DNA of 64,000 nucleotides from Paludibacteraceae bacterium (GTDB lineage Bacteria; Bacteroidota; Bacteroidia; Bacteroidales; Paludibacteraceae), in contig OW818663.1 of NCBI GenBank assembly GCA_942493025.1, forward strand, positions 2,258 through 66,257, written 5' to 3'. The notes beneath the pieces were generated by a model, which worked only from the letters and a program-made list of their open reading frames with translations, searched no databases and was not told the DNA's origin. Every line of letters begins with the position of its first letter. The stretch's first letter is position 1. The position numbers and the translations under genes were made by a program. Of the stretch, positions 3,784 to 41,121 are shown one piece after another.

Positions 3784-3904
3784 TTGTACCTTATGGTATT
3801 GTAATGCTGAAACGAAATGTTTTTCTCTCTTTTTCCGATTGTCTTATTAAACCTATAAGATAGTTTTAAATTGTCAACTGTCAATTATGAACTGTCAACA
3901 GAAC

Positions 3905-5254: not shown

Positions 5255-5299
5255 GATGTGAGTGAATGGTGTGTAATCGATTGAATTGTTTTTACACTA

Positions 5300-5307
5300 C
5301 AAAGATA
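5300..5307 (-). promoter_or_regulatory. Bacteroidetes -7 promoter element (TATCTTTG) for nitroreductase
   Basis: Matches TAnnTTTG about 45 bp upstream of the start codon. Confidence 0.6.
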
Positions 5308-5337
5308 CTGTTTTTGATTTCGAACTGCAAGTATATT

Positions 5338-5381
5338 AAAAAGGAGAAAACTCTGCGGTGAGCATTGAGTTTTCTCCTTTT
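5338..5381 (-). terminator. Terminator after gdhA
   Basis: AAAAAGGAGAAAACTC...GAGTTTTCTCCTTTT hairpin. Confidence 0.75.
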
Positions 5382-5415
5382 ATAATTATTACAGATGAAT
5401 TAAATGGCACATCGA

Positions 5416-6750: not shown

Positions 6751-7094
6751 ACCAGTCTGATTTTTTGTAAAATAATTATATTTGATGTGATGGTCAGTTT
6801 CTGTTGAAATTAATTTTACTTTCTTTTGATGTTAAAAATGGCTATATACAGATCATAATAATACTCATTGTTCTTAATTTAGCTAATTGTGGGCTTAAGA
6901 TGCTGTCTAAATGATAATTGGCTCTTTGAAGAATGCTATTTAAATTTCACTGCAAGTTTAGATATTTTATTTGTAACAGTCAAACAATTTGACTTGTTTT
7001 TTAGCAAAATTTTAAGTTCGCATAATTTCAAAAATCTTAATTTGATTTTCTGTTATTAAATTATAAGGTTTTCGGCTTGCCCAATAAATTTTTG

Positions 7095-7102
7095 TATCTT
7101 TG
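7095..7102 (+). promoter_or_regulatory. -7 element (TATCTTTG) for porin operon
   Basis: TAnnTTTG consensus in AT-rich intergenic region. Confidence 0.55.
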
Positions 7103-7286
7103 CGCTTGTGCATAAACACACATTATTTTGCATTTGTGCTGATTGTTTTTGAAGTTGTTTTATAAATAAAGGCCTGAAATACTGTTTGTTCTTTGTTGTC
7201 GAAAAAAATAATGCTTATGCTATTGCAATGCAGGACGCTGAGATTATTTCAACCTGATTTGTTTATTGTTCCTAATATATTTTTGT

Positions 7287-9170
7287 GTGAAGAAGTTTAT
7301 TTTTTGTATTCAGTTTATATTGTTTTCCAACATTCTTTTTGCTCAAACCGAGCAGGTAAATCAATATGTGAAAACCTGGAGGATTTCGGAACAGTTTGCG
7401 AAAGTCGATTCTTTTCATGTTGATACACTCCATCTTAATTATCAAGATGCTAACCCGATTGATCGATTTAGTATTGCCAATTCATACAATGGAAATTTGG
7501 GTTCACCCATACAATCAAAATTGTATTTTAGCAGACCGGAAGTAAATGATTTTATTTTTTCGAATGCTTATTTTCCTTATTTGATGAATGTTCAGAATGC
7601 AACATTTTATAATACCAAATCTCCATTTAGCAATTTGAATTATACTTCAGGGGGAACAACTTACAGAAAAGAAGATAATATCAAATTCTTATTCACCGTT
7701 AATACGAACAAGAAATTTAATTTTGGTACAACACTGGACTATATTTATGCCAGAGGTGAGTATGATAATCAGGCAGTAACTAAGTTTTCGGGTTCTTTGT
7801 TTGGTAGTTATAACGGCAAGCATTATACAGCTTATGGATTGGCCTCTACAAATAGCTTAAGTAATTTTGAAAATGGCGGGCTGAAAGATGTTACAAATGG
7901 AATCAACCCGGAGAATGTGGCTACTATGATTATTCCGGTAAATATGGAGGGATATTCCAAATTTAAACAAAAACAGATTTATTATAATCATCAGTATACC
8001 ATTGGAATTGAACGGGCTAAGCGGGTAAGTAAAGATTCTGTACGGATGGATTATGTGCCGGTAACCCGCTTTGCTCATACTTTTAAGTATGACGATGTGC
8101 GGAAACGATATTATGAGAATACGGTAATTAATGATACAACTATCTACAAAAAGACGTATTTCGACAAACTAATTCATACAAACGACACTTCTGCTTTAAG
8201 GACATTTAAAAATAATTTTTCCATAAGCATGGAAGAGGAGTTTAATAAATGGATGAACTTCGGGCTGACTGCTTTTGTAGAAAATGAAATGCAGAAATAT
8301 ACTTTTAATAGAGATACTTTGGTAAATAGTGTCTCTAAATCAACAACTAAAGTGGGTGGGATTCTCTCCAAAGAACGAGGTCAACGGTTTAGATACAATG
8401 TGCTTGGTGAATTGAGCTTAATTGGGTATAAAGCCGGTGATTTTAGAATTGAAGGCACAATGGGTGGTTTTTTTAAACTGTGGAATGATAGTATTTCGCT
8501 GGTTGCCAGTGGGTTTATGAGAAGTGATAAGCCTTCATTTTTCTTAGAATCTTATAATTCAAATCATTTTAGATGGGAGAATCATTTTGCCAGTACCTAT
8601 CGTACTCATATCGGTGGTACTTTCTCCATTCCTACGCGTTCATTGTCTTTAAATGTTGGTGTTGAGAATATAACTCAACTGATCTATTTCAATTCGAAAG
8701 GTTTACCGGATCAGCATTCGGGTAATGTGCAGGTCATAGCTTTGAATTTAAAACAAGACTTTCATGTAGGAAAGTTTACGCTCGAAAATAATATTGTGTA
8801 TCAGTTAAGTTCTCAGGCTGACGTTTTGCCTTTACCAACTTTGGCACTTTATCATAATTTGTATTATAATGATAAATGGTTTAATGTGTTGAGTATGCAA
8901 TTGGGTGCAAGTGTACGTTATAACACAGCCTATTACGCACCGAAGTATATGCCTGCTACTGGTCAGTTTTATACGCAGTCGGATGTGAAAATAGGCAATT
9001 TCCCAGTTGTAAATGTATATTTAAATTTTCATTTAAAACGTACTCGCGTTTTTGTTGAGTATTATCATTTAAATCAGAAATTTATGAAAACAGCCTATTT
9101 TTCGATGCCTAACTACCCAATAGACCCTGCTATTCTTAAAACGGGTGTATCCTGGAATTTTTATGATTAA
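7287..9170 (+). CDS. Putative outer-membrane beta-barrel porin (Bacteroidetes putative porin family); likely GTG start at 7287
   Basis: Signal peptide MKKFIFCIQFILFSNILFA, alternating beta-strand pattern, C-terminal GVSWNFYD. Confidence 0.8.
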   Translation: MKKFIFCIQFILFSNILFAQTEQVNQYVKTWRISEQFAKVDSFHVDTLHLNYQDANPIDRFSIANSYNGNLGSPIQSKLYFSRPEVNDFIFSNAYFPYLMNVQNATFYNTKSPFSNLNYTSGGTTYRKEDNIKFLFTVNTNKKFNFGTTLDYIYARGEYDNQAVTKFSGSLFGSYNGKHYTAYGLASTNSLSNFENGGLKDVTNGINPENVATMIIPVNMEGYSKFKQKQIYYNHQYTIGIERAKRVSKDSVRMDYVPVTRFAHTFKYDDVRKRYYENTVINDTTIYKKTYFDKLIHTNDTSALRTFKNNFSISMEEEFNKWMNFGLTAFVENEMQKYTFNRDTLVNSVSKSTTKVGGILSKERGQRFRYNVLGELSLIGYKAGDFRIEGTMGGFFKLWNDSISLVASGFMRSDKPSFFLESYNSNHFRWENHFASTYRTHIGGTFSIPTRSLSLNVGVENITQLIYFNSKGLPDQHSGNVQVIALNLKQDFHVGKFTLENNIVYQLSSQADVLPLPTLALYHNLYYNDKWFNVLSMQLGASVRYNTAYYAPKYMPATGQFYTQSDVKIGNFPVVNVYLNFHLKRTRVFVEYYHLNQKFMKTAYFSMPNYPIDPAILKTGVSWNFYD

Positions 9171-18127: not shown

Positions 18128-18898
18128 ATGCGTATTTCACTTATTCAAGATGTTATCTTTTGGGCTGATAAGGCCGCTAACCTCCAAAAAACAGCCGATC
18201 AACTGGCTGCTTTGGCCGGGCAAACTGATCTTGTGGTGTTGCCCGAGATGTTTACCACCGGTTTTTGTACGGCTAAGATTCATTTGGCTGAAACAATGGA
18301 TGGTGAAACGGTGCAAACGCTAAAAGCCTGGGCTCTAAAATACAAACTGGCCATTACCGGAAGTTTTATCGCTACCGAGAATGGATTACATTACAATAGG
18401 GCATTTTTTGTTTTTCCAACGGGCGAAATAGTTACGGCCGATAAGCGCCATTTATTTACTAAAGGTGAGGAACACAAGCATTTCACAGGCGGTGATAAAC
18501 GGATGATTGTGAATTATTGCGGGTTCAATATATGCGTGATGGTATGTTACGATGTTCGTTTTCCGGTATGGACGCGCAATGTAAACAATGAATACGATTT
18601 GTTGATTTATGTCGCTAATTTCCCCGAACGGCGTATCGTCGACTGGGATATTTTACTGCAGGCTCGTGCCATTGAGAATCAGGCTTATGTGTGTGGGGTG
18701 AACAGGATAGGAGTGGATGGACTGGGCATTGATTACAACGGACATTCTACTTTAATTGATTTCAAAGCCAATACGATATTGCATTTCCCCGAAAATGCGA
18801 CCTTTATTCAAACCTTTGAACTGCAACAGGAACCGCTGCAACGCTATCGCGAAAGATTTGCGGTTTGGAAAGACGCTGACGCATTTGATGTTAAATAA
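18128..18898 (+). CDS. Nitrilase-family amidohydrolase (omega-amidase YafV-like)
   Basis: VLPEMFTTGF, DKRHLF, VCYDVRFP catalytic E-K-C triad. Confidence 0.9.
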   Translation: MRISLIQDVIFWADKAANLQKTADQLAALAGQTDLVVLPEMFTTGFCTAKIHLAETMDGETVQTLKAWALKYKLAITGSFIATENGLHYNRAFFVFPTGEIVTADKRHLFTKGEEHKHFTGGDKRMIVNYCGFNICVMVCYDVRFPVWTRNVNNEYDLLIYVANFPERRIVDWDILLQARAIENQAYVCGVNRIGVDGLGIDYNGHSTLIDFKANTILHFPENATFIQTFELQQEPLQRYRERFAVWKDADAFDVK

Positions 18899-18980: not shown

Positions 18981-19095
18981 CCATACGTGTGCAGCAGAAT
19001 TTCCATACGTGTGCAGCTAAATTTCTTCACGTGCGCAACAAAACTTCTACACGTGTGCAACCAAATTTCTGGACGTGAGGAAATTTTGCTGCAAT
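18981..19095. repeat. Degenerate 22-bp tandem array (5 units)
   Basis: ACGTG(T/C)GCA core at 18985, 19007, 19029, 19051 and ACGTG at 19073. Confidence 0.85.
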
Positions 19096-19184: not shown

Positions 19185-19946
19185 TTACTGCTTCTCTGTC
19201 AGATATTTCCAATAGCGTTGGGGCATGTGTTGGCGTTGAAGCTTCAGGTTGATACGTTCTTTGATGGTCATCGATTTAAAATAACCCTTCCATAGTTCCT
19301 GAAACAATTTTTCATCCTCTGCCATTCGTTTCTCATCCAACTTACCTTCGGGGAAAAGGTCAGCACTGTCGAGCGTCATTTCGGTGACGGTTTTCATGTC
19401 GTAATAATAACCGTAGTTTCGTTTGGTGTCGTAGATAATCCATTTTTGGTCGGCAAAGCGGTCGGTGAAATGTTCCAACGTGAGTGGTAATGAATTGTGG
19501 TCGGGCGATACGGGTGCAAAGAAGATGTCGTCGGCTGCTTTTTGGAAACGTACCAGTTCTATCAATCGACACTTTTCTTTGTTTACTTTCTGTGCCACGT
19601 TGCGCATTTGCAGCACATCATCGTCGGCAAAATTCATTTCGATGGAGTGCTTGCTGTCGAGCGCCTTACGAATGTAACGGAAAATCAACTCGTCGCTCCC
19701 TGCTAGTTCCGACATCCAAACGTAAGAGAGCATGTTTCGGGTGATGGGCGAGAGCTTTTTTACTAAACCTTTCCAAACGCGACCGGATTTTTCTTCGTCA
19801 GTCACTACAGTGTAACTCTCGTCCACAAACAAAGGCTCAAGTTCCTCCAACCCCAACAGTTTGTCGGGGAAAGTCTTGCGGTTGTATGCATCGAATACGG
19901 CCGTCAGTAAGCCTTCGAGAGTTTTATCGTAGTGGAAAATAATCAT
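19185..19946 (-). CDS. TIGR03915-family putative DNA metabolism protein (DUF4130-type)
   Basis: YDKTLEGLLTAVF start, RFQK, FADQKWIIYDTKR, LWKGYF, HMPQRYWKYLTEK; adjacent to the cognate radical SAM gene. Confidence 0.88.
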   Translation of the reverse strand: MIIFHYDKTLEGLLTAVFDAYNRKTFPDKLLGLEELEPLFVDESYTVVTDEEKSGRVWKGLVKKLSPITRNMLSYVWMSELAGSDELIFRYIRKALDSKHSIEMNFADDDVLQMRNVAQKVNKEKCRLIELVRFQKAADDIFFAPVSPDHNSLPLTLEHFTDRFADQKWIIYDTKRNYGYYYDMKTVTEMTLDSADLFPEGKLDEKRMAEDEKLFQELWKGYFKSMTIKERINLKLQRQHMPQRYWKYLTEKQ

Positions 19947-23738: not shown

Positions 23739-25004
23739 ATGAAAGTTTACAAATTTGGTGGAGCGTCGGTGCGCTCAGCGGAAGGGATTCGGAATATCGC
23801 TCACATTGTGTCGGGCGTGAGTGATAATTTATTTATCGTGGTGTCGGCCATGGGTAAAACCACCAATGCTATGGAAGTGGTGTTGGACTTGTTTATGAAA
23901 GCCGATCACAAAGCTTCGTTGGCAAAGCTTGCTGAGGTAGAGGACTACCACTACGAAATTATTGCTGAACTTTTTGCCGATAAAACCAAAGGGAATGCAG
24001 CCGTAGAACCTCTTTTTGCCGAGCTTAAAACTTACCTGACTGAAGGAGTTGGTGATGAGTATGATCGTTGGTACGACCGGTTGGTGTCTTATGGCGAAGT
24101 TATTTCTACACGCATTGTGTCGGCTTTTCTGGCCGAGTCGGGCATTGCCAACGAGTGGGTGGATATGCGCGGATTGTTGGTAACGGATAGTAATTACCGC
24201 GAAGCCAATGTACGCATGGAAGATTCACAGGTGCGTTTGCAAAAGGTGGCTGATTTTAGCAACAACCGTATTTATCTCGGACAAGGTTTTATTGGAGCCA
24301 ATATCAAAGGCGACCCTACGACTCTTGGGCGCGAGGGTTCTGATTATTCGGCGGCTGTGGTTGGAAATTTATTGAATGCCGAAAGTGTTTCTATTTGGAA
24401 AGATGTGCCGGGTATCTTGAATGCTGACCCGCGCTTGTTCGAAAATACAGTGCTTATTCCGGAAATGACCTATCTTGATGCAGTAGAGTTAGCCTACAGT
24501 GGTGCTCAGATTATTCACCCGAAAACGATTAAACCGCTTCAAAATAAAAATATTCCTTTGTTTGTTCGTCCGTTTGGAAGTCCTTCCGAAGCGGGTTCGG
24601 TGATTAAAGCTACCACCGAAAAGCCTATCGATGTTCCGGTTCTTATTTTGCGCAAGAATCAAGTGCTGATTACCGTGCGTCCGCGCGATTTCTCGTTTGT
24701 ATTGGAAGAAAGTCTTTCGAAAGCATTTGCAGTGATGAACAAACACCGATTGAAAGTTTCGTTGATTCAAAGTTCGGCCATTAGTATCTCGGTTTGCGTG
24801 GATAACTCGCGTTATCTGTCGGGAGCGTTGGACGAATTGGGCAATGATTTTAATGTGAATTATAATGATAATTTGGAACTGCTGACAATTAGAGGTCTTG
24901 CAGACGGAATTGTGGAGAAGACTACTACTGGTCGTACCATTTTATTGAAGCAAGAAACGCGCAGAAGTGGCCGGTTCTTGATGAGAGAGGAAGTTAATTC
25001 ATAA
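23739..25004 (+). CDS. lysC: Aspartate kinase (likely start 23739)
   Basis: KFGGASV, VVSAMGKTTN, TLGREGSDYSA, WKDVPG, ADPR, HPKTIKP; C-terminal ACT-like region. Confidence 0.95.
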   Translation: MKVYKFGGASVRSAEGIRNIAHIVSGVSDNLFIVVSAMGKTTNAMEVVLDLFMKADHKASLAKLAEVEDYHYEIIAELFADKTKGNAAVEPLFAELKTYLTEGVGDEYDRWYDRLVSYGEVISTRIVSAFLAESGIANEWVDMRGLLVTDSNYREANVRMEDSQVRLQKVADFSNNRIYLGQGFIGANIKGDPTTLGREGSDYSAAVVGNLLNAESVSIWKDVPGILNADPRLFENTVLIPEMTYLDAVELAYSGAQIIHPKTIKPLQNKNIPLFVRPFGSPSEAGSVIKATTEKPIDVPVLILRKNQVLITVRPRDFSFVLEESLSKAFAVMNKHRLKVSLIQSSAISISVCVDNSRYLSGALDELGNDFNVNYNDNLELLTIRGLADGIVEKTTTGRTILLKQETRRSGRFLMREEVNS

Positions 25005-25045
25005 TTCATAATGCACAATTCATAATGCACAATTCATAATTCATT
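24994..25045 (+). repeat. Heptamer tandem repeat AATTCAT/AATGCAC overlapping the lysC stop
   Basis: aattcataattcataatgcacaattcataatgcacaattcataattcatt. Confidence 0.85.
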
Positions 25046-25126: not shown

Positions 25127-28100
25127 TTAATCTTCTGTTTCCACCGTTTCGGTAATGCTGCCGTAGCGGTGATATTCGAACGCAATGCTTTGCTCTTTTA
25201 CGTAATGGAGCAATTCCACGCGTCCTTCGATGATGGGTTTTGCCGTGGCTATGTATTTTCCAAGTTGGGCAGCTTTGAGTATCATTTCTTTTGAAATGTC
25301 AGAGCTACAGGTACGGATACGTTCGTAGTCGTCCATCTCTTCCAAAAATTCCGCTTCGGATTGAATAAGAATATCACATTCTTTGTTGATGCAATTTTTC
25401 AGCACTTCCAACTTATAATCTTCGGGGGCAATGCTCAGGGTGATGGGGGTACCCACAACGTCTGCAGCAGTTAGAATCATAAATATATCACTCAATTCGT
25501 CGGTGGCTTGCACGCGCAGTGCCATGCTTTTCAGCGGCAAATAGCGGAAAGTGTTCCGTTCGCCGAGTAGATTATTGATATCGAGTTCCAACGAGAATTC
25601 GTGCTTCCAGTTTTTCAAATAGCTTTCTACAGCCGTTTGGAAACGGGTGTTTTCTTTTACATTCAGCATACTTGCAAACGATTTGTAAGCCGTTTCTTTT
25701 ATCTCTTTGGCTTTATATTCAGCGTTTTCGGCAATGTTTACAAAGCACGAAACATAATTGCGCCCGCCGGCTTTGATGCCACCGCCAAAGGCCGACCGTT
25801 TCATGCCGCCGAATGGTTGGCGGTTGACAATTGCACCTGTGATGCCGCGGTTGATGTACAAATTACCCGCTTCGATGTTTGTTTTCCAATGATGTTGTTC
25901 GGTTTCATCCAAACTTTGAAGTCCGGAGGTCAGTCCAAAATCGGTATGGTTGTTCAATAAATCGATGCCATGATCTAGATCATCAATGCAGACAACGGCT
26001 AACAATGGAGCGAATAATTCATTTTTAAACGTAAAACTACCCGGTTTTACGCCCCATTTTACTGATGGTTTAAGGATGAATTTCTTCTCATCAACGAACT
26101 CCGATTTCACCAGCCACCATTCGCCTTCTTCCAAATGGTTGATGGCCTGCAGCAGTTTGTCGTTTTCGTTGGTAATCATGGGACCAACAACATTGCCGCC
26201 ATTCCATACACCACCAACCTGCAAACTTGTTACGGCATCGGTGAGTTTTGTTTTGAAGTCAGGATCGTTGTACACCTCCTTTTCGAGCAATAACAACGAA
26301 CAAGCCGAACATTTCTGACCGGCATTGCTGAATGCCGATGTTACAATGTTCTGAATAGCATGGTCTCGATCGCCACTGGCGGTGAGGATAATGCCGTTTT
26401 TACCACCGGTCTCGGCCGAGAGTGGACAGGCGGGGTTATTTTCCAACAAGCGGAAAGCAGTATCTGTTCCACCTGTGAGGATAATGTGTTTGATAGACGG
26501 ATGGGCGGTAAGGTAAGTCAATGGTTCGCGACCGTCGGTACATACTACCTGCAAGGCGTCTTTGGGTACGCCGGCAGCCCAAAACGATTTAGCAAACTCC
26601 CACGCCACCGGCAATGCCACCGATGCCGGTTTGAGAATTACGGTGTTTCCACCCGCCAAAGCAGCTGCTACACCACCCACGGGAATAGCCAATGGAAAAT
26701 TCCATGGAGGAATGACCAGCACAATGCCTTTTGGGGTATAAGTGATGGTGTTCAGTTCGGCAAAAGCCTTCATGCTGACCGGATAATAGCGACAAAAATC
26801 GATGGCTTCGGATATTTCCACATCCCCTTCGCCAAATGTTTTACCGGTGATGGCCGACATGCAACCAATCAGATTACCGCGGTCGTTGCCGAGGTTTTCG
26901 GCCACCTGATGAAGAATACGGTTGCGATCGTCCAGAGAAGTGCTGCGCCACTTTGAAGCATCTGTTTCGGCTATAGCAATGATTTCTTTTACTTGTTCCA
27001 GATTAGAGACACTGGCTTCGCAAACACATATTTCTTCTGTCTGACTGCGGTCGAAGTAGCGCAGTTTCTTATCCGAAGTGAATTCTTTCTCACCCATCTG
27101 TACGGGGATAGCATAGGGCTTATCGGCAGTAGTTTTCTTCCATTGATTGCGGATACCGTCGGCCCACAAACGATTTTGTTTTAAATCGAAATCAGTATCC
27201 GGCTCGTTTCTGAAAGTGGATAGTTGATAGTTGACAGTTGACGGTTCATTCTTTTGAGTTTTATCAGATATTGCGTCTGAAACCCCCTTCAGGGGGTAGG
27301 GGGTTGTTCTGTCTTGTGTCCGGTATGATTTTGCTTCAATTTTGTCCTTCAAGCCGTAGGCATCCATAAACTGTTGTTGCAGAAAATGCCATTGTTTACT
27401 GTCGTATTTAAGGTTGAATGAGTAGCTGAGGAAATTGTCTTTCCCGGTATTCTCATCCAGTCGGCGAACAAGGTAAGAGACTGCATTGAGGAAATGCTCG
27501 TTTTTTACCACCGGCGTGTACAAAATAATTTGCTTGCCCAGGTTGCGCATCACGCGGGGTAAGTGATTGGCCATTCCTTCCAACATCTCGAAGGTGACTT
27601 GTTCTTCCACACCCATTTTTTTGCTCAACAGGTAGGCATAGCCAATGCTAAAGAAATTGTGCGACGCAACTCCAACGTGCAATGCCTTGGCGTTTTCGGG
27701 TTCAAGGGCTCGATCGAGAATGTGCAGGTAGTTGGCATCCACTTCCACTTTGCTGCCCAATACCGGATTTTCCCAGCCTTTGAGCGACGAAACAATGCTT
27801 TCCATTTGCAGATTCGCCCCTTTTACCAACCGCATTTTTAAATGTGCTCCACCATTTGCACATCTTTCTTTGGCAAACGCCAGCAGTTCGCTTTGCAAGT
27901 TCCACGCATCAGGTAAATAAGCCTGAATGACAATGCCTGCAGAGTAGTTTTTAAACTGAGGTAAAGCCAGCACCGTTTTAAACACATCCAGCGTTAACTC
28001 GGCATCCTTGTATTCTTCCATGTCGAGGTTCACAAACTTGGAGCGACTGACTCCATTGTCGTCGGTGTATGGGTATTCGATTGATTGTTGGTAGATACGA

Positions 28101-28802: not shown

Positions 28803-28900
28803 TGACAGTTATCAGTGAACAGTTATCAGTCATCAGTCATCAGTCATCAGTGAACAGTTATCAGTCATCGGTGAACAGTCATCAGTGAACGGTAATCATA
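28803..28900 (+). repeat. Heptamer tandem repeat TCATCAG/TTATCAG/TGAACAG (about 13 units)
   Basis: cagttatcagtgaacagttatcagtcatcagtcatcagtcatcagtgaacagttatcagtcatcggtgaacagtcatcagtgaacggtaatca. Confidence 0.9.
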
Positions 28901-28970
28901 CCTAAGTTGTTTGTCTGGGGAGAGTAAGAAATAGGACTTAGTGCTGAAATGGATAATTGAAGAATGCAAA

Positions 28971-29222
28971 ATGTAAAACTAAGTAATGAGAAAGTAAGAC
29001 ATCGTAATAAAAAAGTAAATAGTAGTTTTGAAAAAATATAATGTAGTAACTAGAAAGTAATATGTATTAATAAAAAAGTAAAAAGACGCATTAAAAAAGT
29101 AAAGTGGAGTAATAATAAAGTAATGATTATTAATTAAAAAGTAAATTGTAATAATTAAAAAGTAAATTGTAGTAATTGAAAAGTAATACTACGGAGTGAA
29201 AAAGTAAAATGTATTATTCTTA
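28971..29222. repeat. Non-coding 21-bp tandem array, 11-12 units, consensus about AAGTAAATTGTAGTAATTAAA
   Basis: AAGTAA core at 28992, 29013, 29055, 29076, 29097, 29118, 29139, 29160, 29181 and 29202 (29034 degenerate); exact 21-bp phase. Confidence 0.92.
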
Positions 29223-29261
29223 TTTGGCATGAACACAGGAAGTGTGTAACCGTTTTATTGT

Positions 29262-30005
29262 TTATTTGCTGAACTTTCTAAAAGTCAGTTTCGAAAGTTG
29301 TTTAAACTCATAACTACTCATTCCGAATACCGATTTTACATAGTTTTTTACATCAACTGATAGGTCGACTAGTCCTGTAAGAGGTGCTTCCTGAATCTTG
29401 TTGCGGGTGCTACGTGCACTTTTAAGTGCTATGGTGGCTATTGTTGCTCTGTTGTGTTTCGTTTTCAGGTTGTTGCTAAAAGTGCGCAAACCTATTGGCT
29501 TTAGAGTTTCTTCGTTGGGAGCGTATTCAGGAATCGATTCGAAATATGCAATTAGTTCGTCGAAGTTGGCAATGCGATTATCGAAACTCATTTGTGAAGT
29601 TGATTTTTCTTTCATGTCACTTCCTTCGGTGTTCATTGCTTGTGGGTCGGGTGTCGATTTCTTAGTGGCTTTATTCCCCTGAATTTTGCGAACAAGTGCT
29701 TTGGCGTTATTGTCCTGCCGGCCAATGGTGCTGCTTGCTTTAATGGCACTTATAGTTCTGCTGGTGAGTGGAGTGAGCAATTTAAATGTTTCGGCACGCT
29801 CGGCAGTAGCGTTTTTGTATTCTGCTTTGGCTACGTTTAGTACATGTGTTGCGTCTAGAGCATTGCTTGCCACTTGTTGCAGTTGGGGTATTTGTATAGC
29901 TTCTCTCGATGGGTTGTAGGCCGAACCGAAACTAATAACGGTGCTGATTAATTGCTGCCAGTTGGCAAGGTTTTTCGAATAACCTACTTCTGAAATTTCA
30001 CTCAT
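29262..30005 (-). CDS. Hypothetical, predicted largely alpha-helical cytoplasmic protein (likely start 30005)
   Basis: Long ORF with own TATCTTTG -7 element (30099-30106); SEVGYSKNLANW..YNPS, SQMSFDNRIANF, YAPNE, VKNYVKSVFG; I recall similar Bacteroidota hypothetical proteins but know no function. Confidence 0.8.
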   Translation of the reverse strand: MSEISEVGYSKNLANWQQLISTVISFGSAYNPSREAIQIPQLQQVASNALDATHVLNVAKAEYKNATAERAETFKLLTPLTSRTISAIKASSTIGRQDNNAKALVRKIQGNKATKKSTPDPQAMNTEGSDMKEKSTSQMSFDNRIANFDELIAYFESIPEYAPNEETLKPIGLRTFSNNLKTKHNRATIATIALKSARSTRNKIQEAPLTGLVDLSVDVKNYVKSVFGMSSYEFKQLSKLTFRKFSK

Positions 30006-30422
30006 AATTAAACGATTTATCAGGTTTGAGTATTGAAGATAATTACGATTTTTCTTGGAAATCAATGACTATAATCTGTGTTTTATTGTTGGTTAATGCA
30101 AAGATATATTTTATTATTTAGCAAAAAAACGATTTAATTTTTTTTTGCTAAACAGATTGTTCTTGCGCTTTGCTACGCCTTTTGAGTCTTGAATTTATAG
30201 TGAAAATTATCAATAGTTTTTTTTATTATGTATAAATGGTGTGGATATTTAAAGTGTGGCCTCTGTTGATTATAAAAAATTAAAGTTGTAATTTTGGTGC
30301 GAAAAATTGAATCTAAATATAGTAGGATTCATTCTGCTATTATTTTCAGGGAATAATTGTAAACTAATAATGGGGATGCTGAAAACCAAAACGAGTAAGC
30401 AATAATATTTAAGTTGTGTGTA

Positions 30423-33541: not shown

Positions 33542-33624
33542 AATTTCGTTATTCTAAACAGAATTACCTAATCCTGTCGGCATTTTTAAAAACTGCCGGC
33601 AAAAGTGCGCTAGTATTGAAATTT

Positions 33625-36600
33625 ATGATTTTTACAAAAAAACTACTTCCTGTATTATTCATCTGTGGCTTAGTACTCAGTTCGGCTTACGCATTTGTAA
33701 GTCCTGTATATAGTTACACTGTTGAGCCACCCGTGCCCGACAATGTAGTTGCCGCATCGGATACAGGCAAAACTTCCACCGCTTTCCCCATAAAAAAATA
33801 CACGCAGGACAGTTACGAAGAATTGAATGCCCAGTATCCGATGGATGCTCCGCAACCCGCTAATGTAAAGTCCGGTTTTGAGTATGATACCCGAACTGGC
33901 AATTATGTTCTGCGCTCTAAGGTGGGCGAAACGGATATTTCTACCCCGTTTACCATGACCCCGGAGGAGTATCGTAACTTCTCGGGCAAGCTTGATTTAC
34001 AGCGGTATTGGAAGGAGAAAAACTCCAAAGCACAGGTAAACAATGAAGACAAATTTTCCAAATCGGATATCAAGTTCAGTCTTGGCCCTGCCGATAAGGT
34101 TTTTGGCCCCGGTGGGATACAAATAAAAACGCAAGGTTCGGCCGAGTTGGTATTTGGGTTTAAGAGCAATAAAATCAATAATCCGGCGCTCACCGAACGG
34201 ATGCGCAAGTCGAATATTTTTGACTTCGACGAAAAAATACAGCTGAATGTAAGCGGTAATGTGGGCGATAAATTGAATTTCGGGTTGAATTACAATACCG
34301 AGTCCAGTTTTGATTTTGATCAAAAAATGGTGAAGCTGGCCTTTAAGGGGAAGGAAGATGATATTATCAAAAGCATAGAAGCCGGGAACGTGAGCATGCA
34401 ACTGAATAGTTCATTGATTTCGGGGAGCACAGCGCTTTTTGGTGTGAAGACCGAATTGCAGTTTGGAAAACTGAGCGTTACAGCCCTCGCATCGCAACAG
34501 GAATCGCAAACGCAAACCGTGAGCGCAAAAGGTGGAGCGCAAATTACTCATTTTGATGTGGATGCCGATGCTTACGATGAAAACCGGCACTTCTTTTTAT
34601 CGCATTATTTTCGCGATAATTACGAGAAATCGATGAGTCAATTGCCTTTGATTTCGTCGGGTGTTACCATTAAAAGGGTGGAGGTTTGGGTTACCAACAA
34701 ACGTGGTAACTACGATCAGGCAAGGAATATTGTTGCTTTTATGGATTTGGGTGAAACGAACAGAATCGACAATCAACACTGGGCAACTACCGGAGCCGAT
34801 AAATTGCCAAAGAATAAGGTCAATACGCTTTACGATGAAGTTACGGCCATGGATGGCGTGCGCGATGTGCAGCAAGCAAACAATGTTCTGTCGTCAAACC
34901 TGGGTGTTTACGGAATTAATGGTGGCGAAGATTACGAAAAAATAGAGAGTGCACGCAGGTTGGATCAGTCGGAATATACGCTGAATCCCGGTTTGGGATT
35001 TATTTCCCTGCGCAATACGCTGAATCCAGATGAGGTGCTTGGTGTGGCTTACGAGTACTCGTATGGCGGAGAAGTGTATCAGGTGGGTGAATTTTCTACC
35101 GATAATGTTGCTGCTCCCAACGCATTGGTTGTGAAGTTGCTGAAAGCCACAGCACAATCGCCTCAGCTGGCATTGTGGGATTTGATGATGAAAAACGTTT
35201 ATAATCTGGGGGCTTTGGAGATTCAACCGGATAATTTTAAATTGAACATCGTCTATCGTAATGACTCTGTAGGTACAGATATACAATATCTTACCGAAGG
35301 GAATATAAAAAATGAGCTGTTGCTTCGGGTGATGAACCTCGATCGATTGGATACAAAAGGAAATCTCAACAGAGATGGGAAGTTTGACTTTGTGGAAGGT
35401 TATACGGCGCTTTCATCCTCCGGTAGAATAGTTTTTCCTGTTTTGGAGCCTTTCGGTAAACACCTTTTAGATAAAATAGGAAATGCAGGTATTGCAAAAA
35501 AATATATATTTCAGGAGTTGTATGACTCTACTCTGATTGTAGCACAGAGCTACAGCGAGAAAAAGAAGTTCCGCCTGGTAGGAGAATACAAAGGTACGAG
35601 CGGGGCTACTTCCGAAATACGTCTGAATGCTATGAATATACCGCGTGGATCGGTAACGGTTACTGCCGGTGGGGTAACGCTGATTGAGAATAAAGACTAC
35701 ACGGTGGATTATACCATGGGTACGGTTTCCATTATCGACGAGGCTTTGGTGCAATCCAAGACAAAGATTGATGTGAAGCTGGAAAACCAATCCATGTTTA
35801 GCATGCAACGAAAATCGCTGGTTGGAACGCATTTAGAGTATAAGTTCAATAAAGACTTCAGCTTGGGTGGTACAATTATGCACTTGTCGGAAATGCCACT
35901 TACTACCAAAGTGAATACAGGTAGCGAACCCATTTCAAATACCATTTGGGGGATGAATACTTCCTGGCGCACCGAGTCGCAATGGATAACCAATATGCTC
36001 GATAAACTGCCGTTTGTAAATGCCACCAAGCCATCGACCATAGCATTAAATGCAGAATTTGCGCAACTAATACCGGGACACTCCAATGTAATCAGTTCGG
36101 CCGGCCTGGCTTATCTCGACGACTTTGAATCGACTAAAACCACTATCGATATTCATTATCCGTTTAGTTGGTATTTGGCCGGCACACCTTATAACCCCGG
36201 TGCAAACGCTCTGTTTCCCGAAGCTGCAAAAAGCAACGACGTGGAATACGGAAAGAACCGTGCGCTGATGTCATGGTATTTAGTTGATCCGATATTTAAT
36301 TCCAATGTGAGTGCCACACCTCAATACTTAAGGACTGACGACGCGCAATCAAATCATTTGACGCGTACCGTGGTTGAGCAGGAAATTTTCCCTAACAGAA
36401 ATACGCCTCAAGGTCAGACTTCGCGGATGACGGTGTTGAATCTGTCGTATTATCCAACCGAACGTGGACCTTATAATCTCGACGTAGCAGGGATGAATGC
36501 CGATGGAACACTGGCTAATCCGAAAAACCGTTGGGGTGGAATTATGCGTAAGTTGGATGCCAGTGCGAGCGATTTCGAAACATCGAACATCGAATACATT

Positions 36601-39600
36601 GAGTTTTGGATGATGGATCCATTTATCAATGATAAAGCAAACACTGATAAAGGTGGCGATTTGTATTTCAACCTGGGCGATGTCAGCGAAGATATCCTGA
36701 AAGATGGAAAGAAATCATTCGAAAATGGACTCCCTTTGGATGGTGATCTTGCAAAAACAGAAGAAACAAAATGGGGTGTTGTACCTAAAATTCAATCCAC
36801 TGTCACTGCGTTCGACAATGCTGCCGGTGCGCGCAAAAATCAGGATGCAGGATTGGATGGATTGTCTACCGATAATGAATTTCAGTTTTCCACTTACAAA
36901 GATTATGTTACGGGCATTAGTGCAAAATTATCTCCTGATGCTAAACAACGCTTTCAGGCCGATCCGTTTTCGCCTATAAATGACCCCGCCGGCGATAATT
37001 ATCATTTCTATCGTGGAAATGATTATGATGATGAAAAACTGGATGTGTTGACCCGTTACAAACATTATAATGGTGTTGAAGGTAACTCGCCCGAAACGAC
37101 GACCAACGATATTTATGGTACATCGGCTACTTCTTTACCCGATCAAGAGGATATTAACCAGGATAATACGCTGAATGAGTATGAAAAGTACTATCAGTAC
37201 CGCATTCGCTTAAATAAAGGGTTGATGAATATTGGAGATAACCATATTACCGATATTGTAACTGCCAAGGTAACGCTGAAAAACGATGAAGTTGTGCCGG
37301 TAAAATGGTATCAGTTTAAAATTCCGGTTCGGCAATACGACGAAAAAATAGGAAGCATCCGAAATTTTAAGTCTATCCGCTTTATTCGAATGTTCCTTAC
37401 TAATTTCGAAAAAGAGACGCATTTACGTTTTGCAACTATGGATTTGGTACGAGGCGAGTGGCGTAACTTTACCAAACCACTTTATCCGGTGGGTACTTTA
37501 CCTTTATCAGATGGAAAATTAGAAATTCAGGCTGTAAATATTGAGGAAAACAGCAGCAAAACGCCGGTCAACTACGTGCTGCCTCCGGGTGTTACGCGTG
37601 AGACCGACCCGGGTCAGCAGCAAATCCTGCAACTAAATGAGCAGGCAATGCTCCTGCGGCTGAATGATCTTTCGCCAGGTGATGCTCGTGCGGTATATAA
37701 AAATACGAATTACGATATGCGTCAGTACAAACGCCTGCAAATGTTTGTGCATGCCGAGAAACTGATGAACGATAATACCAACTTGCAGGATAATCAGTTG
37801 TCGTGTTTCATCCGTTTGGGATCAGACATGGTTAATAACTATTATGAATATGAAATTCCACTACGATTAACCCCTCCGGGAGACTACAGTGGAGGAGATA
37901 ATTCTCATCGCGCAACTGTTTGGTATCCCGAAAATATGTTTGATTTTCCGTTTACGTCGCTTACCAATGCGAAACTAAAACGAAATGTTGACAGGCAAAA
38001 TAATGTGGCAGGTGTTGGAAATACAATTCCATACACAGTCAATGAAACCGATCCGGCAAAACTGAAAAATAAAATCACGGTGGTAGGTAATCCTTCTTTG
38101 TCGGAAGTACAAACCATTATGATTGGTGTCAGAAGTGTGAAAGGAGAGGTGAGGGACGATGTGAAATCCGGAGAAATTTGGGTGAACGAGTTGCGCATGT
38201 CCGAGTTTGACGAGTCGGGTGGTTGGGCTGCCATGGGAAACCTGGCGGTAGGATTGTCCGATATTGGGAATGTGAATATCTCCGGTCGCACTGAATCAGC
38301 CGGATTTGGAGGTATTGAGAGTAATGTGATGAACAGGCGTTTGGACGATTTATACCAAATGAATTTTTCTACAGCCCTGGAGCTGGGTCGTTTTTTACCA
38401 GAGAAAGCTAAAATTCAGATTCCAGCCTATTTTTCGTATTCCAACGAGACTTTATCACCCAAATACAATCCACTTGATCAGGATATTAAACTGAAAGATG
38501 CATTGGAAAGTATGGATAATAAGGCAGATCGGGATTCGTTGAAATCAATAACACAGTCGGTGGTGACCACCAAAAGTTTCAATATCTCGGGTGCCCGGGT
38601 AAATATAAAAAGTAAGACTCCACAGTTTTACGATCCTGCCAATGTGTCGTTTAGCTATGCTTTTAACGAAACAAAACAACACAGTCAGGATGTAGAGGAA
38701 AATCTGGTAAAAGATCAGCGTGGGGCCATCGACTATAATTTCTCGTTTAACCCTACGCCTTGGGAGCCATTTAAAAATGTCAAAGCACTAAGTAGTCCGA
38801 TGTTGAAAATAGTGAAAGACTTTAATCTGAACTATTTGCCAACAACGTTGAGTTTGAATACCAATATGAATCGTCAATACTCGCAGGTGAAATTGCGCGA
38901 TTTAAATGCCGATCCCTCAATAATTGGGACTAATCAAGCCTTGGATATGACTTTTAGCAGGGATTTTATGTGGAACAGACGATTTGATATTACCTACGAT
39001 TTAACCCGTGCGCTTAAATTTAGTTTCCAGTCGGCTATGAATGCCAATATTGCTGAACCATACAAAACCCCTGAGGTTAATCCCGATTATTACAAAGAAT
39101 GGCGCGACTCGGTTTGGTCGAATATCCGTAAGTTAGGTACTCCTTACGCCTATCAGCAGGTGTTTTCTGCCTCGTGGATCTTGCCACTAAATAAAATTCC
39201 AACTTTCGACTGGGTTACAGCCAATGCTAGTTATAATTCTACCTACGATTGGAATAGAATGGCTCGGGTGTCGGGTGACAGCCAGTTAGGAAATATCGCT
39301 ACCAGCATGGGAGCATGGCAAGTCGATGGAACTTTCAATTTCGAAAGTCTTTACAATAAATCTAAATACCTGAAGGATGTGAATCGACGGTTTGCTACGC
39401 AGCCGAATACCAATAAATCAAAATTTCAATCTAAGACCTATAATCAGATGGTGCGGTTGGAAAAAAATAAGCCGATTACCATTAATCACCGCTTAGGCAG
39501 TGATAAGTTAATGTTCAAGGTTGCCGACAAGCTTGGCAAACCCATGTTGCTTTCTTACAAGTCAAAGAATTCAAGTTCGTTGGAAATAACACCTCAGATA

Positions 39601-41121
39601 GATGCTGATAGTGTTATGCTTACTCTTGTTAGTCAGGATCCAAACGAGCAAACGGCAAGTGCCAAAACGGTTGATTTTGTTGCCCGTATGTTGATGATGG
39701 TGCGTCGCGTAAGCTTCACGTATCGTGAGTCGAACAGTACGGTGCTACCCGGTTTCTTGCCCGAGCCGGTTTTCCTGGGACAGCAAAAATATGGCGGTGT
39801 CGGTTCTCAGATGAATGCGCCGGGATATGCTTTTGCTTTTGGATTTCAGGATAAAAATTTACTTCAACGAGCGTTGGATAATGGCTGGTTGGTGAATGAT
39901 ACCAGCATTGTCAATCCTGCCACTACTGCATTTACATCCGATCTTGATATTAAGGCTACGCTTGAACCTCTGCCGGGGTTTAAGATAGATGTAAGCGCAA
40001 AACGCTATACTGCTGATAATACAACTGTTCAGTACATGTTCGACGGAATGCCAACAAGCTTTACAGGTAGTTATAATATTACTCTGGTGGCACTTTCCAC
40101 CGCTTTTAAACCAATGGGAACGGCTAATCAAAATTATAATTCTGAAGTGTTCAATACCTTTTTGGCCAATAGAAAGATTATACAAAACAGATTGAATAAA
40201 CAATATGCAGGCACTCGTTATCCAAGTAGCGGTTTTTTCAAGGATATTCCTTCTTATGCCGGAAAAGAGTTTGGGTCGGTGGGTAACGCCAATACGGCTT
40301 ACTCCGAAAATTCGGCCGACGTACTCATTCCGGCCTTCCTGGCTGCATATACCGGAAGGGATGCGAACTCGATGAGTACCAATCCGTTTCTTTCGTTGCT
40401 GAGCGTTTTGCCGAACTGGCGCATAAGTTATGATGGTTTGTCACGTTTACCTTGGGTTAAAAATCATTTCCGATCGGTGAGTCTGACACATGCTTACACT
40501 TGTCGTTACAGTGTGGGTGCGTATACTTCATTCTCTACGTGGGAAGGCGTAGGTGGCGATAACAGTGCGCTTGGTTATGTGCGCGATGTGCAAACGAACA
40601 ATCCGATTATGTCGTCGCCTTACGATATTTCAACCGTTTCGCTGACCGAACAGTTTAGTCCGCTTATTGGAGTAAATGTGGCAATGAACAATAGCATGAC
40701 CGCTAAGATGGAATTTCGTAAGCAACGAAACCTGGCTCTCAATCTGTCGAGTACACAATTGGTGGAGGCAGCAAGCGATGAATATGTCGTCGGGATGGGC
40801 TATGTTATCAAGGATTTTGATGTTATTCTGAAATTGAAAAACGATAAACAAACCACCATTAAAAACGATTTGAAATTAAGTGCGGATTTGTCATACAAAG
40901 ACATTAAAACGCTTTTACGAAAAATTGACAGCAATCTTACACAAGCATCGAGTGGGAATAAACTATTGACACTAAAAGTAATTGCCGACTACGTTTTCAG
41001 TTCGAAACTAAATATTCAATTGTTCTATGACCGGCAAATGAGTTCGCCGCTTATTTCATCTTCATTCCCTGTTTCATCAACAAACTTTGGGGTTAGTTTC
41101 AAATTTATGTTGACACGTTAG
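33625..41121 (+). CDS. sprA: Type IX secretion system outer-membrane translocon SprA/Sov (likely start 33625)
   Basis: About 2500 aa; FDFDEKIQLNVSG, YDENRHFFL, WGGIMR, EYIEFW, GEIWVNELR, RIRFDPL-like repeats; directly downstream of ruvA. Confidence 0.95.
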   Translation: MIFTKKLLPVLFICGLVLSSAYAFVSPVYSYTVEPPVPDNVVAASDTGKTSTAFPIKKYTQDSYEELNAQYPMDAPQPANVKSGFEYDTRTGNYVLRSKVGETDISTPFTMTPEEYRNFSGKLDLQRYWKEKNSKAQVNNEDKFSKSDIKFSLGPADKVFGPGGIQIKTQGSAELVFGFKSNKINNPALTERMRKSNIFDFDEKIQLNVSGNVGDKLNFGLNYNTESSFDFDQKMVKLAFKGKEDDIIKSIEAGNVSMQLNSSLISGSTALFGVKTELQFGKLSVTALASQQESQTQTVSAKGGAQITHFDVDADAYDENRHFFLSHYFRDNYEKSMSQLPLISSGVTIKRVEVWVTNKRGNYDQARNIVAFMDLGETNRIDNQHWATTGADKLPKNKVNTLYDEVTAMDGVRDVQQANNVLSSNLGVYGINGGEDYEKIESARRLDQSEYTLNPGLGFISLRNTLNPDEVLGVAYEYSYGGEVYQVGEFSTDNVAAPNALVVKLLKATAQSPQLALWDLMMKNVYNLGALEIQPDNFKLNIVYRNDSVGTDIQYLTEGNIKNELLLRVMNLDRLDTKGNLNRDGKFDFVEGYTALSSSGRIVFPVLEPFGKHLLDKIGNAGIAKKYIFQELYDSTLIVAQSYSEKKKFRLVGEYKGTSGATSEIRLNAMNIPRGSVTVTAGGVTLIENKDYTVDYTMGTVSIIDEALVQSKTKIDVKLENQSMFSMQRKSLVGTHLEYKFNKDFSLGGTIMHLSEMPLTTKVNTGSEPISNTIWGMNTSWRTESQWITNMLDKLPFVNATKPSTIALNAEFAQLIPGHSNVISSAGLAYLDDFESTKTTIDIHYPFSWYLAGTPYNPGANALFPEAAKSNDVEYGKNRALMSWYLVDPIFNSNVSATPQYLRTDDAQSNHLTRTVVEQEIFPNRNTPQGQTSRMTVLNLSYYPTERGPYNLDVAGMNADGTLANPKNRWGGIMRKLDASASDFETSNIEYIEFWMMDPFINDKANTDKGGDLYFNLGDVSEDILKDGKKSFENGLPLDGDLAKTEETKWGVVPKIQSTVTAFDNAAGARKNQDAGLDGLSTDNEFQFSTYKDYVTGISAKLSPDAKQRFQADPFSPINDPAGDNYHFYRGNDYDDEKLDVLTRYKHYNGVEGNSPETTTNDIYGTSATSLPDQEDINQDNTLNEYEKYYQYRIRLNKGLMNIGDNHITDIVTAKVTLKNDEVVPVKWYQFKIPVRQYDEKIGSIRNFKSIRFIRMFLTNFEKETHLRFATMDLVRGEWRNFTKPLYPVGTLPLSDGKLEIQAVNIEENSSKTPVNYVLPPGVTRETDPGQQQILQLNEQAMLLRLNDLSPGDARAVYKNTNYDMRQYKRLQMFVHAEKLMNDNTNLQDNQLSCFIRLGSDMVNNYYEYEIPLRLTPPGDYSGGDNSHRATVWYPENMFDFPFTSLTNAKLKRNVDRQNNVAGVGNTIPYTVNETDPAKLKNKITVVGNPSLSEVQTIMIGVRSVKGEVRDDVKSGEIWVNELRMSEFDESGGWAAMGNLAVGLSDIGNVNISGRTESAGFGGIESNVMNRRLDDLYQMNFSTALELGRFLPEKAKIQIPAYFSYSNETLSPKYNPLDQDIKLKDALESMDNKADRDSLKSITQSVVTTKSFNISGARVNIKSKTPQFYDPANVSFSYAFNETKQHSQDVEENLVKDQRGAIDYNFSFNPTPWEPFKNVKALSSPMLKIVKDFNLNYLPTTLSLNTNMNRQYSQVKLRDLNADPSIIGTNQALDMTFSRDFMWNRRFDITYDLTRALKFSFQSAMNANIAEPYKTPEVNPDYYKEWRDSVWSNIRKLGTPYAYQQVFSASWILPLNKIPTFDWVTANASYNSTYDWNRMARVSGDSQLGNIATSMGAWQVDGTFNFESLYNKSKYLKDVNRRFATQPNTNKSKFQSKTYNQMVRLEKNKPITINHRLGSDKLMFKVADKLGKPMLLSYKSKNSSSLEITPQIDADSVMLTLVSQDPNEQTASAKTVDFVARMLMMVRRVSFTYRESNSTVLPGFLPEPVFLGQQKYGGVGSQMNAPGYAFAFGFQDKNLLQRALDNGWLVNDTSIVNPATTAFTSDLDIKATLEPLPGFKIDVSAKRYTADNTTVQYMFDGMPTSFTGSYNITLVALSTAFKPMGTANQNYNSEVFNTFLANRKIIQNRLNKQYAGTRYPSSGFFKDIPSYAGKEFGSVGNANTAYSENSADVLIPAFLAAYTGRDANSMSTNPFLSLLSVLPNWRISYDGLSRLPWVKNHFRSVSLTHAYTCRYSVGAYTSFSTWEGVGGDNSALGYVRDVQTNNPIMSSPYDISTVSLTEQFSPLIGVNVAMNNSMTAKMEFRKQRNLALNLSSTQLVEAASDEYVVGMGYVIKDFDVILKLKNDKQTTIKNDLKLSADLSYKDIKTLLRKIDSNLTQASSGNKLLTLKVIADYVFSSKLNIQLFYDRQMSSPLISSSFPVSSTNFGVSFKFMLTR

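Follow-up and report, generated by a model that had tools for sequence, protein, structure and literature searches.

Introduction

A tight linkage between a protein gene and a repeat array usually marks a machine made of nucleic acid and protein, as in centromeres, replication origins, clustered regularly interspaced short palindromic repeat (CRISPR) loci and type III toxin–antitoxin pairs. On the F plasmid, sopC lies downstream of sopB; there, and in the ParB/ParR-type centromeres, a gene stands next to a direct-repeat array thought to bind its product. Here we describe a likewise arranged locus on a 64,000-nucleotide stretch of DNA (hereafter the window) from a Paludibacteraceae bacterium (assembly GCA_942493025.1, contig OW818663.1, positions 2,258 to 66,257 of the forward strand), in which the gene for a 247-aa protein is followed by a non-coding array of 21-bp units. 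A preliminary description, made from the letters of the window, had called the locus a protein plus repeat system. That is a fair description: arrays lie downstream of 70 of 79 homologues and not genome-wide beside unrelated genes, so gene and array are one conserved module. The module is undescribed and phylum-wide, is recurrently linked to integron-like cassette arrays and fits none of the classes named above.

The resemblances and differences are instructive. Relative to SopB–sopC, the units measure 21 bp rather than 43 bp and apparently derive from the gene's own 3′ hairpin; relative to the ParABS, ParMRC and SopABC loci, 80 homologue loci share no conserved neighbour, ParA, ParM and TubZ are absent from the neighbour families listed in a Pfam census, and neither a ParB helix-turn-helix (HTH) nor a ribbon-helix-helix (RHH) fold was found in the window protein. 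Unlike partition centromeres, the module is chromosomal, exists as several diverged copies per genome and is absent from plasmids. Iteron–Rep origins share direct repeats (17–22 bp) at about two helical turns beside the gene of the presumed binder; here, however, Pfam and Foldseek detected no winged-helix Rep domain, there is no plasmid copy, neither an AT-rich DNA-unwinding element nor a DnaA-box context was found (or sought), and the 8–20 units are placed downstream of the gene and run in the direction of transcription. Type III toxin–antitoxin systems (ToxIN, CptIN, TenpIN) share a protein gene, a tandem non-coding repeat and a hairpin between the two, but the order here is reversed, the units are 21 nt instead of 34–40 nt, degenerate and unstructured, and no ToxN/AbiQ signal was found. 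CRISPR arrays are recognized by 24–48-bp repeats, unique spacers of similar length and cas genes nearby, whereas the present units are contiguous, with ~6–9 variable positions in 21 bp, and no cas domains occur among the neighbours.

Two further comparisons can be made. CsrB/RsmZ for CsrA, and TRAP on the trp leader, likewise involve many evenly spaced short motifs on unstructured RNA, with which the loading of many protomers proposed here can be compared; in the present case the putative platform is fused in cis to its own gene, has a 21-nt pitch and bears a motif that differs between paralogues. With the integron platform (intI–attI–Pc), In0 elements (no cassettes) and groups of attC sites without an integron-integrase (CALIN), the likeness is one of position: in about one third of the relatives the module sits at the attI/intI-proximal end with an outward promoter, and solo copies resemble an integron platform without cassettes. 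The family protein, however, is not a tyrosine recombinase, and the 21-bp array stands in place of a recognizable attI.

Results

The window is chromosomal sequence from a Paludibacter-like Bacteroidales genome, with an rRNA operon at its start, and the region is 89–95% identical to, and syntenic with, a contig of a Paludibacter metagenome-assembled genome (MAG; locus L001 of the survey below). The parts of the module in the window are as follows.

29262..30005, minus strand: gene for the 247-aa protein (open reading frame and family alignment)
28958..29209, minus strand: non-coding array, 12 units of exactly 21 bp (phasing and shuffle control)
29210..29261, minus strand: spacer from stop codon to array, the site of hairpin 1 in relatives; here a weak 5-bp stem only, at 29233–29247
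30099..30106, minus strand: promoter-like −7 box TATCTTTG, Bacteroidetes TAnnTTTG consensus (read from the sequence)

Read along the gene strand, the array begins 53 nt past the stop codon, at 29209, and ends at 28958; the preliminary description had placed it about 40 nt past the stop and ended it at 28971. Its strict 21-bp phasing and non-coding character are borne out. The gene-strand unit is (T/A)TTTACTTTTTnATTAnnnnn, with the core TTTACTTTTT (AAGTAA on the plus strand); AAGTAA occurs at 28992, 29013, 29055, 29076 and onward to 29202, all spacings being 21 or 42 bp, with a single off-phase copy at 28981. Self-identity is 0.67 at lag-21, 0.65 at lag-42 and 0.71 at lag-63, and 2000 shuffles, scored at the best of lags 5–59, reached a maximum of 0.51. 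Tandem Repeats Finder (TRF) returned periods of 21/42/63. In the 64-kb window the array gives the top lag-21 signal; the second is an adjoining heptamer run, which scores because 21 = 3 × 7. The array has 19% G+C and no open reading frame (ORF) of at least 30 aa on either strand, with stops in every frame, and the corresponding L001 array is essentially unstructured as RNA (ΔG −2.9 for 201 nt, sense z +0.28).

We then asked how regularly such arrays accompany the gene, using 80 fetched homologue loci of ~7 kb each (79 evaluable for a downstream array) and a sensitive measure, lag-21 identity in 126-bp windows with a cut-off of 0.5. Identity of at least 0.5 was found just downstream of the gene in 70/79 evaluable loci and anywhere else in the ~7 kb in 5/80; of these five signals, one is a displaced array and four are heptamer/14-mer runs or repeats of another kind. 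TRF placed a period-21, -42 or -63 array 0–400 bp past the stop codon in 55/80 loci, none of the 80 has an array upstream of the gene, and hundreds of flanking genes yielded only three small arrays (3–4 units) with periods of 18–23. Placement of 21/22-bp arrays immediately downstream of homologues beyond chance, for which the preliminary description had suggested a search, is therefore what we find, and the contrary outcome that it named, identical arrays genome-wide beside unrelated genes, was not found. The gene–array association is real, ancient and specific. Carriers include MAGs of Bacteroidales, Prolixibacteraceae, Chitinophagales, Cytophagales and Sphingobacteriales.

Homologue arrays span 104–463 bp with a median of ~10 units. 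Unit sequence varies between genomes and between paralogues in one genome; the period stays constant (21, 42 or 63). Position weight matrices (PWMs) built from the units match their own array only, not promoters or flanks, and a PWM scan found no operator-like unit copies at the gene's own promoter. The TAnnTTTG consensus is not enriched within the array or at either edge, on either strand. Two other roles for the array were rejected: i) a coding array (a heptad peptide or a multi-core precursor of a ribosomally synthesized and post-translationally modified peptide, 21 bp being 7 codons), as no frame is consistently open (any open frame through the array in 19/68 arrays in sense and 30/68 in antisense), and ii) a structured RNA array, as minimum-free-energy z-scores are near zero. 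Contigs often end in or just past the array or beside the family gene (e.g. L002, L009, L042, L048, L085). The repeats, or attC arrays behind them, thus seem to break short-read assemblies, and the context of the family is thereby under-sampled in MAGs.

The window protein belongs to a large family. It has 353 close relatives, all of ~247 aa and all annotated 'hypothetical'; a profile search gave 2,967 clusters at 50% identity, with members of about 245 aa and in Bacteroidota only, and at least 543 family stretches lie in GTDB species genomes, often two per genome. Complete chromosomes with family members include OW818695.1, OY969556.1, OY781961.1, OY787458.1, OY782761.1 and CAWAHF010000004.1. 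No match to the window protein was found in Pfam, NCBIfam, PHROGs, PADLOC or PDB sequences, and full-text literature searches turned up no account of either the family or the array. The protein is basic (isoelectric point (pI) 9.7; family median 9.5). An AlphaFold2 (AF2) model built with an 18-sequence alignment (predicted local distance difference test 82, predicted template modelling score 0.70) contains helices only, in an N block (H7–25, H39–75, H77–90, H96–109) and a C block (H141–157, H170–206, H212–227, H232–238) separated by a predicted disordered linker at residues 113–138. By hhalign the halves are homologous to each other (probability 95.7%, E 1e-8), with conserved Arg/Lys at equivalent positions of the two repeats (invariant R70 and R201). 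As modelled, the protein is a tandem pair of ~100-aa four-helix units joined by a disordered linker. The preliminary description had called it helical, with which the model agrees; the structural search that it suggested gave no significant match, since Foldseek searches of PDB and BFVD, run with the whole model and separately with its N-terminal repeat, returned only generic long-helix bundles (best E 0.2). Two window ORFs of similar length (256 aa, 18128..18898; 253 aa, 19185..19946) were considered as paralogues and rejected as unrelated.

At its 5′ side, the full ORF is TTG-initiated and covers 29262..30065 (minus strand). By family alignment the ATG at 30005 is the conserved start, and the longer version, to 30065, has no backing from that alignment. 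The TATCTTTG box, present as had been described, occupies 30106–30099, 94 nt 5′ of the ATG. An exact TAnnTTTG lies within 250 nt upstream of the gene in 24/77 homologues, with a peak at 40–60 nt and a background of 0.15 per 250 nt.

Between the stop codon and the array, ~50 homologue loci carry a strong hairpin (hairpin 1; ΔG −14 to −30) often with the recurrent sequence AAACYGCRRTTG-loop-CAAYYGCRGTTT, and the 600 bp that follow family genes hold a hairpin-1 10-mer at 55 times the density of the flanks. In a strand test with symmetric choice of the best window for each strand, folding is better in sense in 42 loci and in antisense in 13 (mean −2.7 kcal/mol, p 5e-6); the corresponding split in control flanking DNA is 37 to 27. 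This sense-strand bias in stability indicates that selection acted on hairpin 1 as RNA, within the transcript of the gene. The T-tail is moderate (on average 3.6 of 8 nt are T). The hairpin's 3′ arm lies in exact 21-nt register with the units, resembles them and equals the first array unit; L010-group loci have AACTGCGGT in each arm, at a distance of 21 nt.

The window departs from this pattern. No terminator was predicted between its gene and array, and the same spacer in L001 (98% identical) has a best local hairpin of ΔG −6.7; in the syntenic, 72%-identical L086, GGAACCGCAGTTG...CAACTGCGGTTT stands at the spacer position, fused directly to a TTTTACTTTyTT array. Lacking a gene–array hairpin makes the window atypical for the family. 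The absence of a terminator hairpin, as noted in the preliminary description, therefore holds for the window and not for the family, and the co-transcription drawn from that absence runs into the ~50 homologue loci that have a hairpin selected in the sense RNA. Arrays nevertheless persist without hairpin 1 in the window and in the L022 and L070 groups. In the L022 group and the window they start 2–50 nt past the stop, so near to it that the array must be transcribed there.

With orientation fixed and cyclic shifts only, the units of 66 arrays align to approximately AGCAACTGCAAATTTGAAATT, with an information content of 6.0 bits, where column-permuted nulls give 3.08 ± 0.06. Conservation is highest in a palindromic core, CAAWTTTG; the units in the window are an A/T-drifted version of the motif. 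A first PWM analysis had suggested arrays in both orientations to the gene. We reject this, as hairpin 1 and the 3′ element described below are always co-oriented and the shifts-only motif is significant; the apparent double orientation is due to the quasi-palindromic core.

The window holds a second phased array, at 18985–19095, of four 22-bp direct units (ACGTGTGCAaCnAAATTTCt, plus strand) and an inverted copy. Read on the minus strand, it consists of a hairpin at 19060–19095 followed by four 22-bp units at 18985–19077 in register with the hairpin's 3′ arm. This is the architecture of the 21-bp module, ~90 nt downstream of an unrelated ORF, 19185..19946, which by eye from its translation (not by family search) looks like a DUF4130-type 'probable DNA metabolism protein'.

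Past the array, 27/80 loci share a conserved non-coding element of ~170 nt, always on the gene strand (for example L022 4959–5173 and L010 1667–1877) and absent from the window. DNA conservation of this 3′ element is ~80%, against ~68% for the coding gene. It contains a second hairpin (hairpin 2) with compensatory changes in 14/17 pairs, then a sense-strand T-run and, last, a C/A-rich tail that ends in AAAAAATTAAAACCCC. Searches of Rfam (gathering threshold for the window and 15 loci; E ≤ 1 for 2 loci) returned only rRNA, tRNA and chance microRNA matches. An antisense RNA at hairpin 2 was considered and rejected, given no G·U asymmetry in the covarying stem (6 vs 3 cells) and the T-run on the sense side; the antisense strand does fold more stably in 22/23, an excess attributable to C-rich composition. 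Hairpin 2 looks like a real terminator.

Further downstream, many loci continue into what resembles an integron cassette array. attC sites are imperfect palindromes with RYYYAAC/GTTRRRY ends, arranged in the same orientation with one cassette between sites. A sense-strand consensus TAnnTTTG promoter (e.g. TATATTTG) is enriched 150–250 nt past the array end, and within ~30 nt after this promoter come imperfect palindromes of ~130 nt that start ..YTAAC and end CGTTAG... Our first attC finder, a regular expression plus folding, was too permissive (many matches in coding DNA) and was replaced by an nhmmer model of our own from 13 elements; the attC-like call rests on that model and not on IntegronFinder. 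With it, copies were detected in 29 loci, on the gene strand in essentially every case, and about 29–35 of the 80 loci have attC-like elements in total. The first copy lies at +410..+560 and more follow every 0.4–1.5 kb with one ORF between, as in L055 (six copies; 5262–8486) and L066 (element, 217-aa ORF, element, 303-aa ORF, element; 5222–7269), and likewise in L008 (5262–7647), L022 (5240–6081) and others, in MAGs of Bacteroidales, Prolixibacteraceae and Chitinophagales. When aligned, 28 copies show invariant AAC and GTT at their ends, with 13/16 covarying pairs. In two of these loci, ORFs were assigned by eye: the L022 cassette cargo from 6114 looks SIR2-like from its N-terminal sequence, and an IS91-type transposase-like ORF follows the L066 array (7978–8727, minus strand).

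The orientation of the attC-like elements places the family gene on the attI/intI-proximal side. No integrase was found near it: a scan for the HxLRH...LGH...Y motif in all frames of 88 loci found no tyrosine recombinase within 4 kb, and Phage_integrase is not among the top 25 neighbour families listed in the Pfam census. No attI could be recognized from sequence. Upstream of cassette-linked copies are mostly core genes, e.g. kdpD and efflux pumps, although an attC-like element lies ~4 kb upstream in four loci. The protein tree intermixes cassette-linked and solo copies, and places the window protein in a divergent solo lineage. The nhmmer model finds no attC-like site in the window, whose copy is a solo version upstream of putA, without hairpin 1, 3′ element or attC-like site.

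No conserved neighbour gene or operon partner emerged among the 80 loci. The next gene lies on the same strand in 30 loci and on the opposite strand in 24, and immediate neighbours are mostly housekeeping genes, with some restriction–modification (RM) genes. By tblastn, no family copy occurs in 72,556 plasmids or 50,697 phage records. Paralogues in one genome are only 39–45% identical, which argues that the module is not an active mobile element. Some copies lie directly downstream of large defence-type genes (L002 950–3919, L060 815–3931, L085 1–2077): an MmeI/Eco57I-like type IIG RM gene, a Type ISP RM gene and an NA-iREase2 gene with a STAND (signalling NTPase) domain. The RM gene is preceded by an attC-like element in L002 and L060, where the family gene may thus lie inside a cassette array and not at its head.

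A comparison of the window with its sister strain L001 captures change in the array at short range. Identity is 97.6% for the gene (95.2% at third codon positions), 98.0% for the upstream intergenic region and 94.6% for the array, which in addition differs by one clean 21-bp unit indel. By reading of the alignment, 10/12 array substitutions fall outside the TTTACTTTTT core.

Discussion

Our preferred reading, to which we give a little less than an even chance, is that the array is a putative multivalent binding platform, linked in cis, for the protein encoded just upstream. We infer the binding itself from comparative evidence: no other partner is conserved, the protein combines a basic charge with a pseudo-dimeric build, and a fixed-pitch motif is held across ~40% protein identity. 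Which nucleic acid is bound, and to what effect, is inferred as well. In the mechanism that we propose, the protein would recognize a short degenerate gene-strand motif, approximately C(A/T)nCTGCAAAtTTGnAA, that may have descended from, and stays in register with, the 3′ arm and U-tract of the gene's own hairpin. Ten to twenty protomers could then line up at a fixed 21-nt pitch. Action would be on the transcript, as a long 3′ untranslated region nucleated at hairpin 1 and closed by the hairpin-2 terminator where present, and the outcome might be an autoregulatory or insulating ribonucleoprotein. As the module lies directly upstream of a promoter and attC-like array in about one third of the family, its role may be control or insulation of what lies downstream.

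As to the nucleic acid, we slightly favour RNA over duplex DNA, which is nearly as likely, because the founder units form a hairpin selected as RNA, all elements are co-oriented with transcription, hairpin 2 looks like a terminator, and the arrays of the window and the L022 group begin right past the stop.

Several observations weigh against this binding-platform reading. The fold has no recognizable nucleic-acid-binding domain, Foldseek returning generic helical bundles. As RNA the arrays are themselves unstructured (mean z −0.56), and little array RNA would be expected where hairpin 1 acts as a terminator. A pitch of exactly 21 bp (two helical turns) and a palindromic core speak for duplex DNA rather than RNA. 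Between the window and L001 the array diverges about as much as third codon positions do (5.4% vs 4.8%), so purifying selection on array sequence is weak at short range. Finally, the second array of the window, beside an unrelated gene, indicates that slippage of a terminator arm can make such arrays without a dedicated protein.

Some of these points favour a version in which the protein acts on duplex DNA, which we consider unlikely. Here the units would be phased double-stranded sites and a protein filament on them a boundary, roadblock or silencer before the downstream promoter, with hairpins 1 and 2 only shielding the array from transcription. The exact period in ~70 loci, the whole-unit indels that preserve phase and the phased A/T tracts in many arrays are what such a filament would call for, and the palindromic core suits a pseudo-dimeric two-repeat protein, but no HTH, RHH or winged-helix fold was detected that would supply the contact. 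A strong hairpin ahead of the array in many loci would fit the shielding, and the array is always upstream of the promoter in cassette-linked loci. Yet all elements are strand-oriented relative to the gene, the T-run of hairpin 2 on the sense side implies that transcription crosses the array, and the arrays of the L022 group and the window, beginning right past the stop, are transcribed.

Alternatively, and in our estimate improbably, the arrays could be a by-product in which the protein has no part. The conserved, quasi-palindromic 3′ hairpin would create a direct repeat ~21 bp apart, from which slipped-strand replication could copy the 3′ arm. The register and likeness of the units to the 3′ arm of hairpin 1, with AACTGCGGT in both arms of the L010 group, would follow directly, as would the satellite-type dynamics (homogenized centres, decayed edges, unit indels and a near-neutral substitution rate) and the same architecture, with 22-bp units, at an unrelated gene of the window. 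Arrays accompany, however, ~88% of the family loci at a median of ~10 units, against three small arrays among flanking genes; nor do the arrays vanish where hairpin 1 is missing, and their period never drifts to 20 or 22. The by-product reading also leaves without account the terminator sequence kept across ~40% protein identity.

The link to cassette arrays admits two further readings. One, speculative and in our judgement not probable, is that the module is the leader of a new class of cassette-array platform, integrase-less or remotely serviced, in which the protein would coat the array and set or regulate the entry point and promoter, solo copies being cassette-free. If this were true, Bacteroidota would possess an integron-like gene-capture system of which the family is a new core component. 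The other, which we find quite doubtful, makes the module an accessory of an integron platform: the array would be an attI-like landing pad or architectural site, the protein a helper or regulator for an integrase encoded elsewhere, and solo copies cassette-less. The ~130-nt attC-like elements, with AAC/GTT ends, 13/16 covarying pairs and uniform gene-strand orientation, together with the attI-proximal module, the consensus promoter pointing into the cassette array and GTTRYAAC within many units, are consistent with such a role. The sites occur, however, in only ~29–35/80 loci and not in the window, their identification rests on our own model and not on IntegronFinder, the first element past the promoter is a complete attC and not a hybrid attI, and neither the Pfam census nor the motif scan finds a tyrosine recombinase within 4 kb.

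The analogy to type III toxin–antitoxin pairs drawn in the preliminary description, in which the array would be cut to 21-nt RNAs that neutralize a toxic protein, is very improbable and fails on fold and family, repeat position, repeat length and identity, and RNA structure. It has the general picture of a protein gene beside a tandem non-coding repeat, and a few family copies adjoin RM or STAND genes; the protein, however, is all-helical where ToxN has an alpha/beta fold, matches neither ToxN, AbiQ, CptN nor any other PADLOC entry, and is followed, not preceded, by its repeats, which often lie behind a hairpin, so that the RNA would be made in deficit. The units, unstructured and 21 nt long against 34–40 nt, are ~67% alike in the window. 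A plasmid-type centromere or iteron origin on an integrated element (ParB/SopB–sopC, ParR–parC, Rep–iterons), the preliminary description having raised a centromere- or iteron-like site array, we regard as scarcely credible, for although ~20-bp direct repeats adjoin the gene of a putative binder, the module sits in a chromosome among housekeeping genes, with an rRNA operon in the same window, has no ParA, ParM or Rep neighbour, no integrase and no plasmid or phage copy, and its paralogues are only 39–45% identical in one genome.

At 50% identity the family comprises ~3,000 clusters, confined to Bacteroidota, and it lacks annotation, detectable relatives and a matching fold. Bacteroidota are not known to carry Hfq, ProQ or CsrA, and a new multivalent RNA- or DNA-binding system in the phylum would therefore be of general interest. 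A survey with IntegronFinder 2.0 found essentially one complete integron in Bacteroidetes genomes (PMC9024848). Repeated placement of the module at the head of attC-like arrays provides a route into cassette organization in a phylum where integrons were thought nearly absent. The system is small, one gene and ~250 bp of repeats, and its cultured carriers include Breznakibacter xylanolyticus DSM 6779.

Other features of the window

Tandem heptamer runs of differing sequence (AGTTGAC, CTGATAA, TAATCAC, GGGAATT, TAATTCA, CAGTCAT and others) are scattered over the window, at 290–328, 349–380, 467–524, 3872–3899, 4070–4105, 4238–4263, 24995–25044, 27211–27246 and 28805–28898. They occupy rRNA-operon spacers, several intergenic regions and a site within a putA-like ORF, and one adjoins the 21-bp array; this last run differs from strain L001 by a 42-bp indel. 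Comparable runs occur in other loci (L054, L012), and they are reminiscent of the heptamers of cyanobacterial short tandemly repeated repetitive (STRR) sequences. A few kb away from the gene and array lies a very large ORF of 2,501 aa (33616–41121, plus strand).

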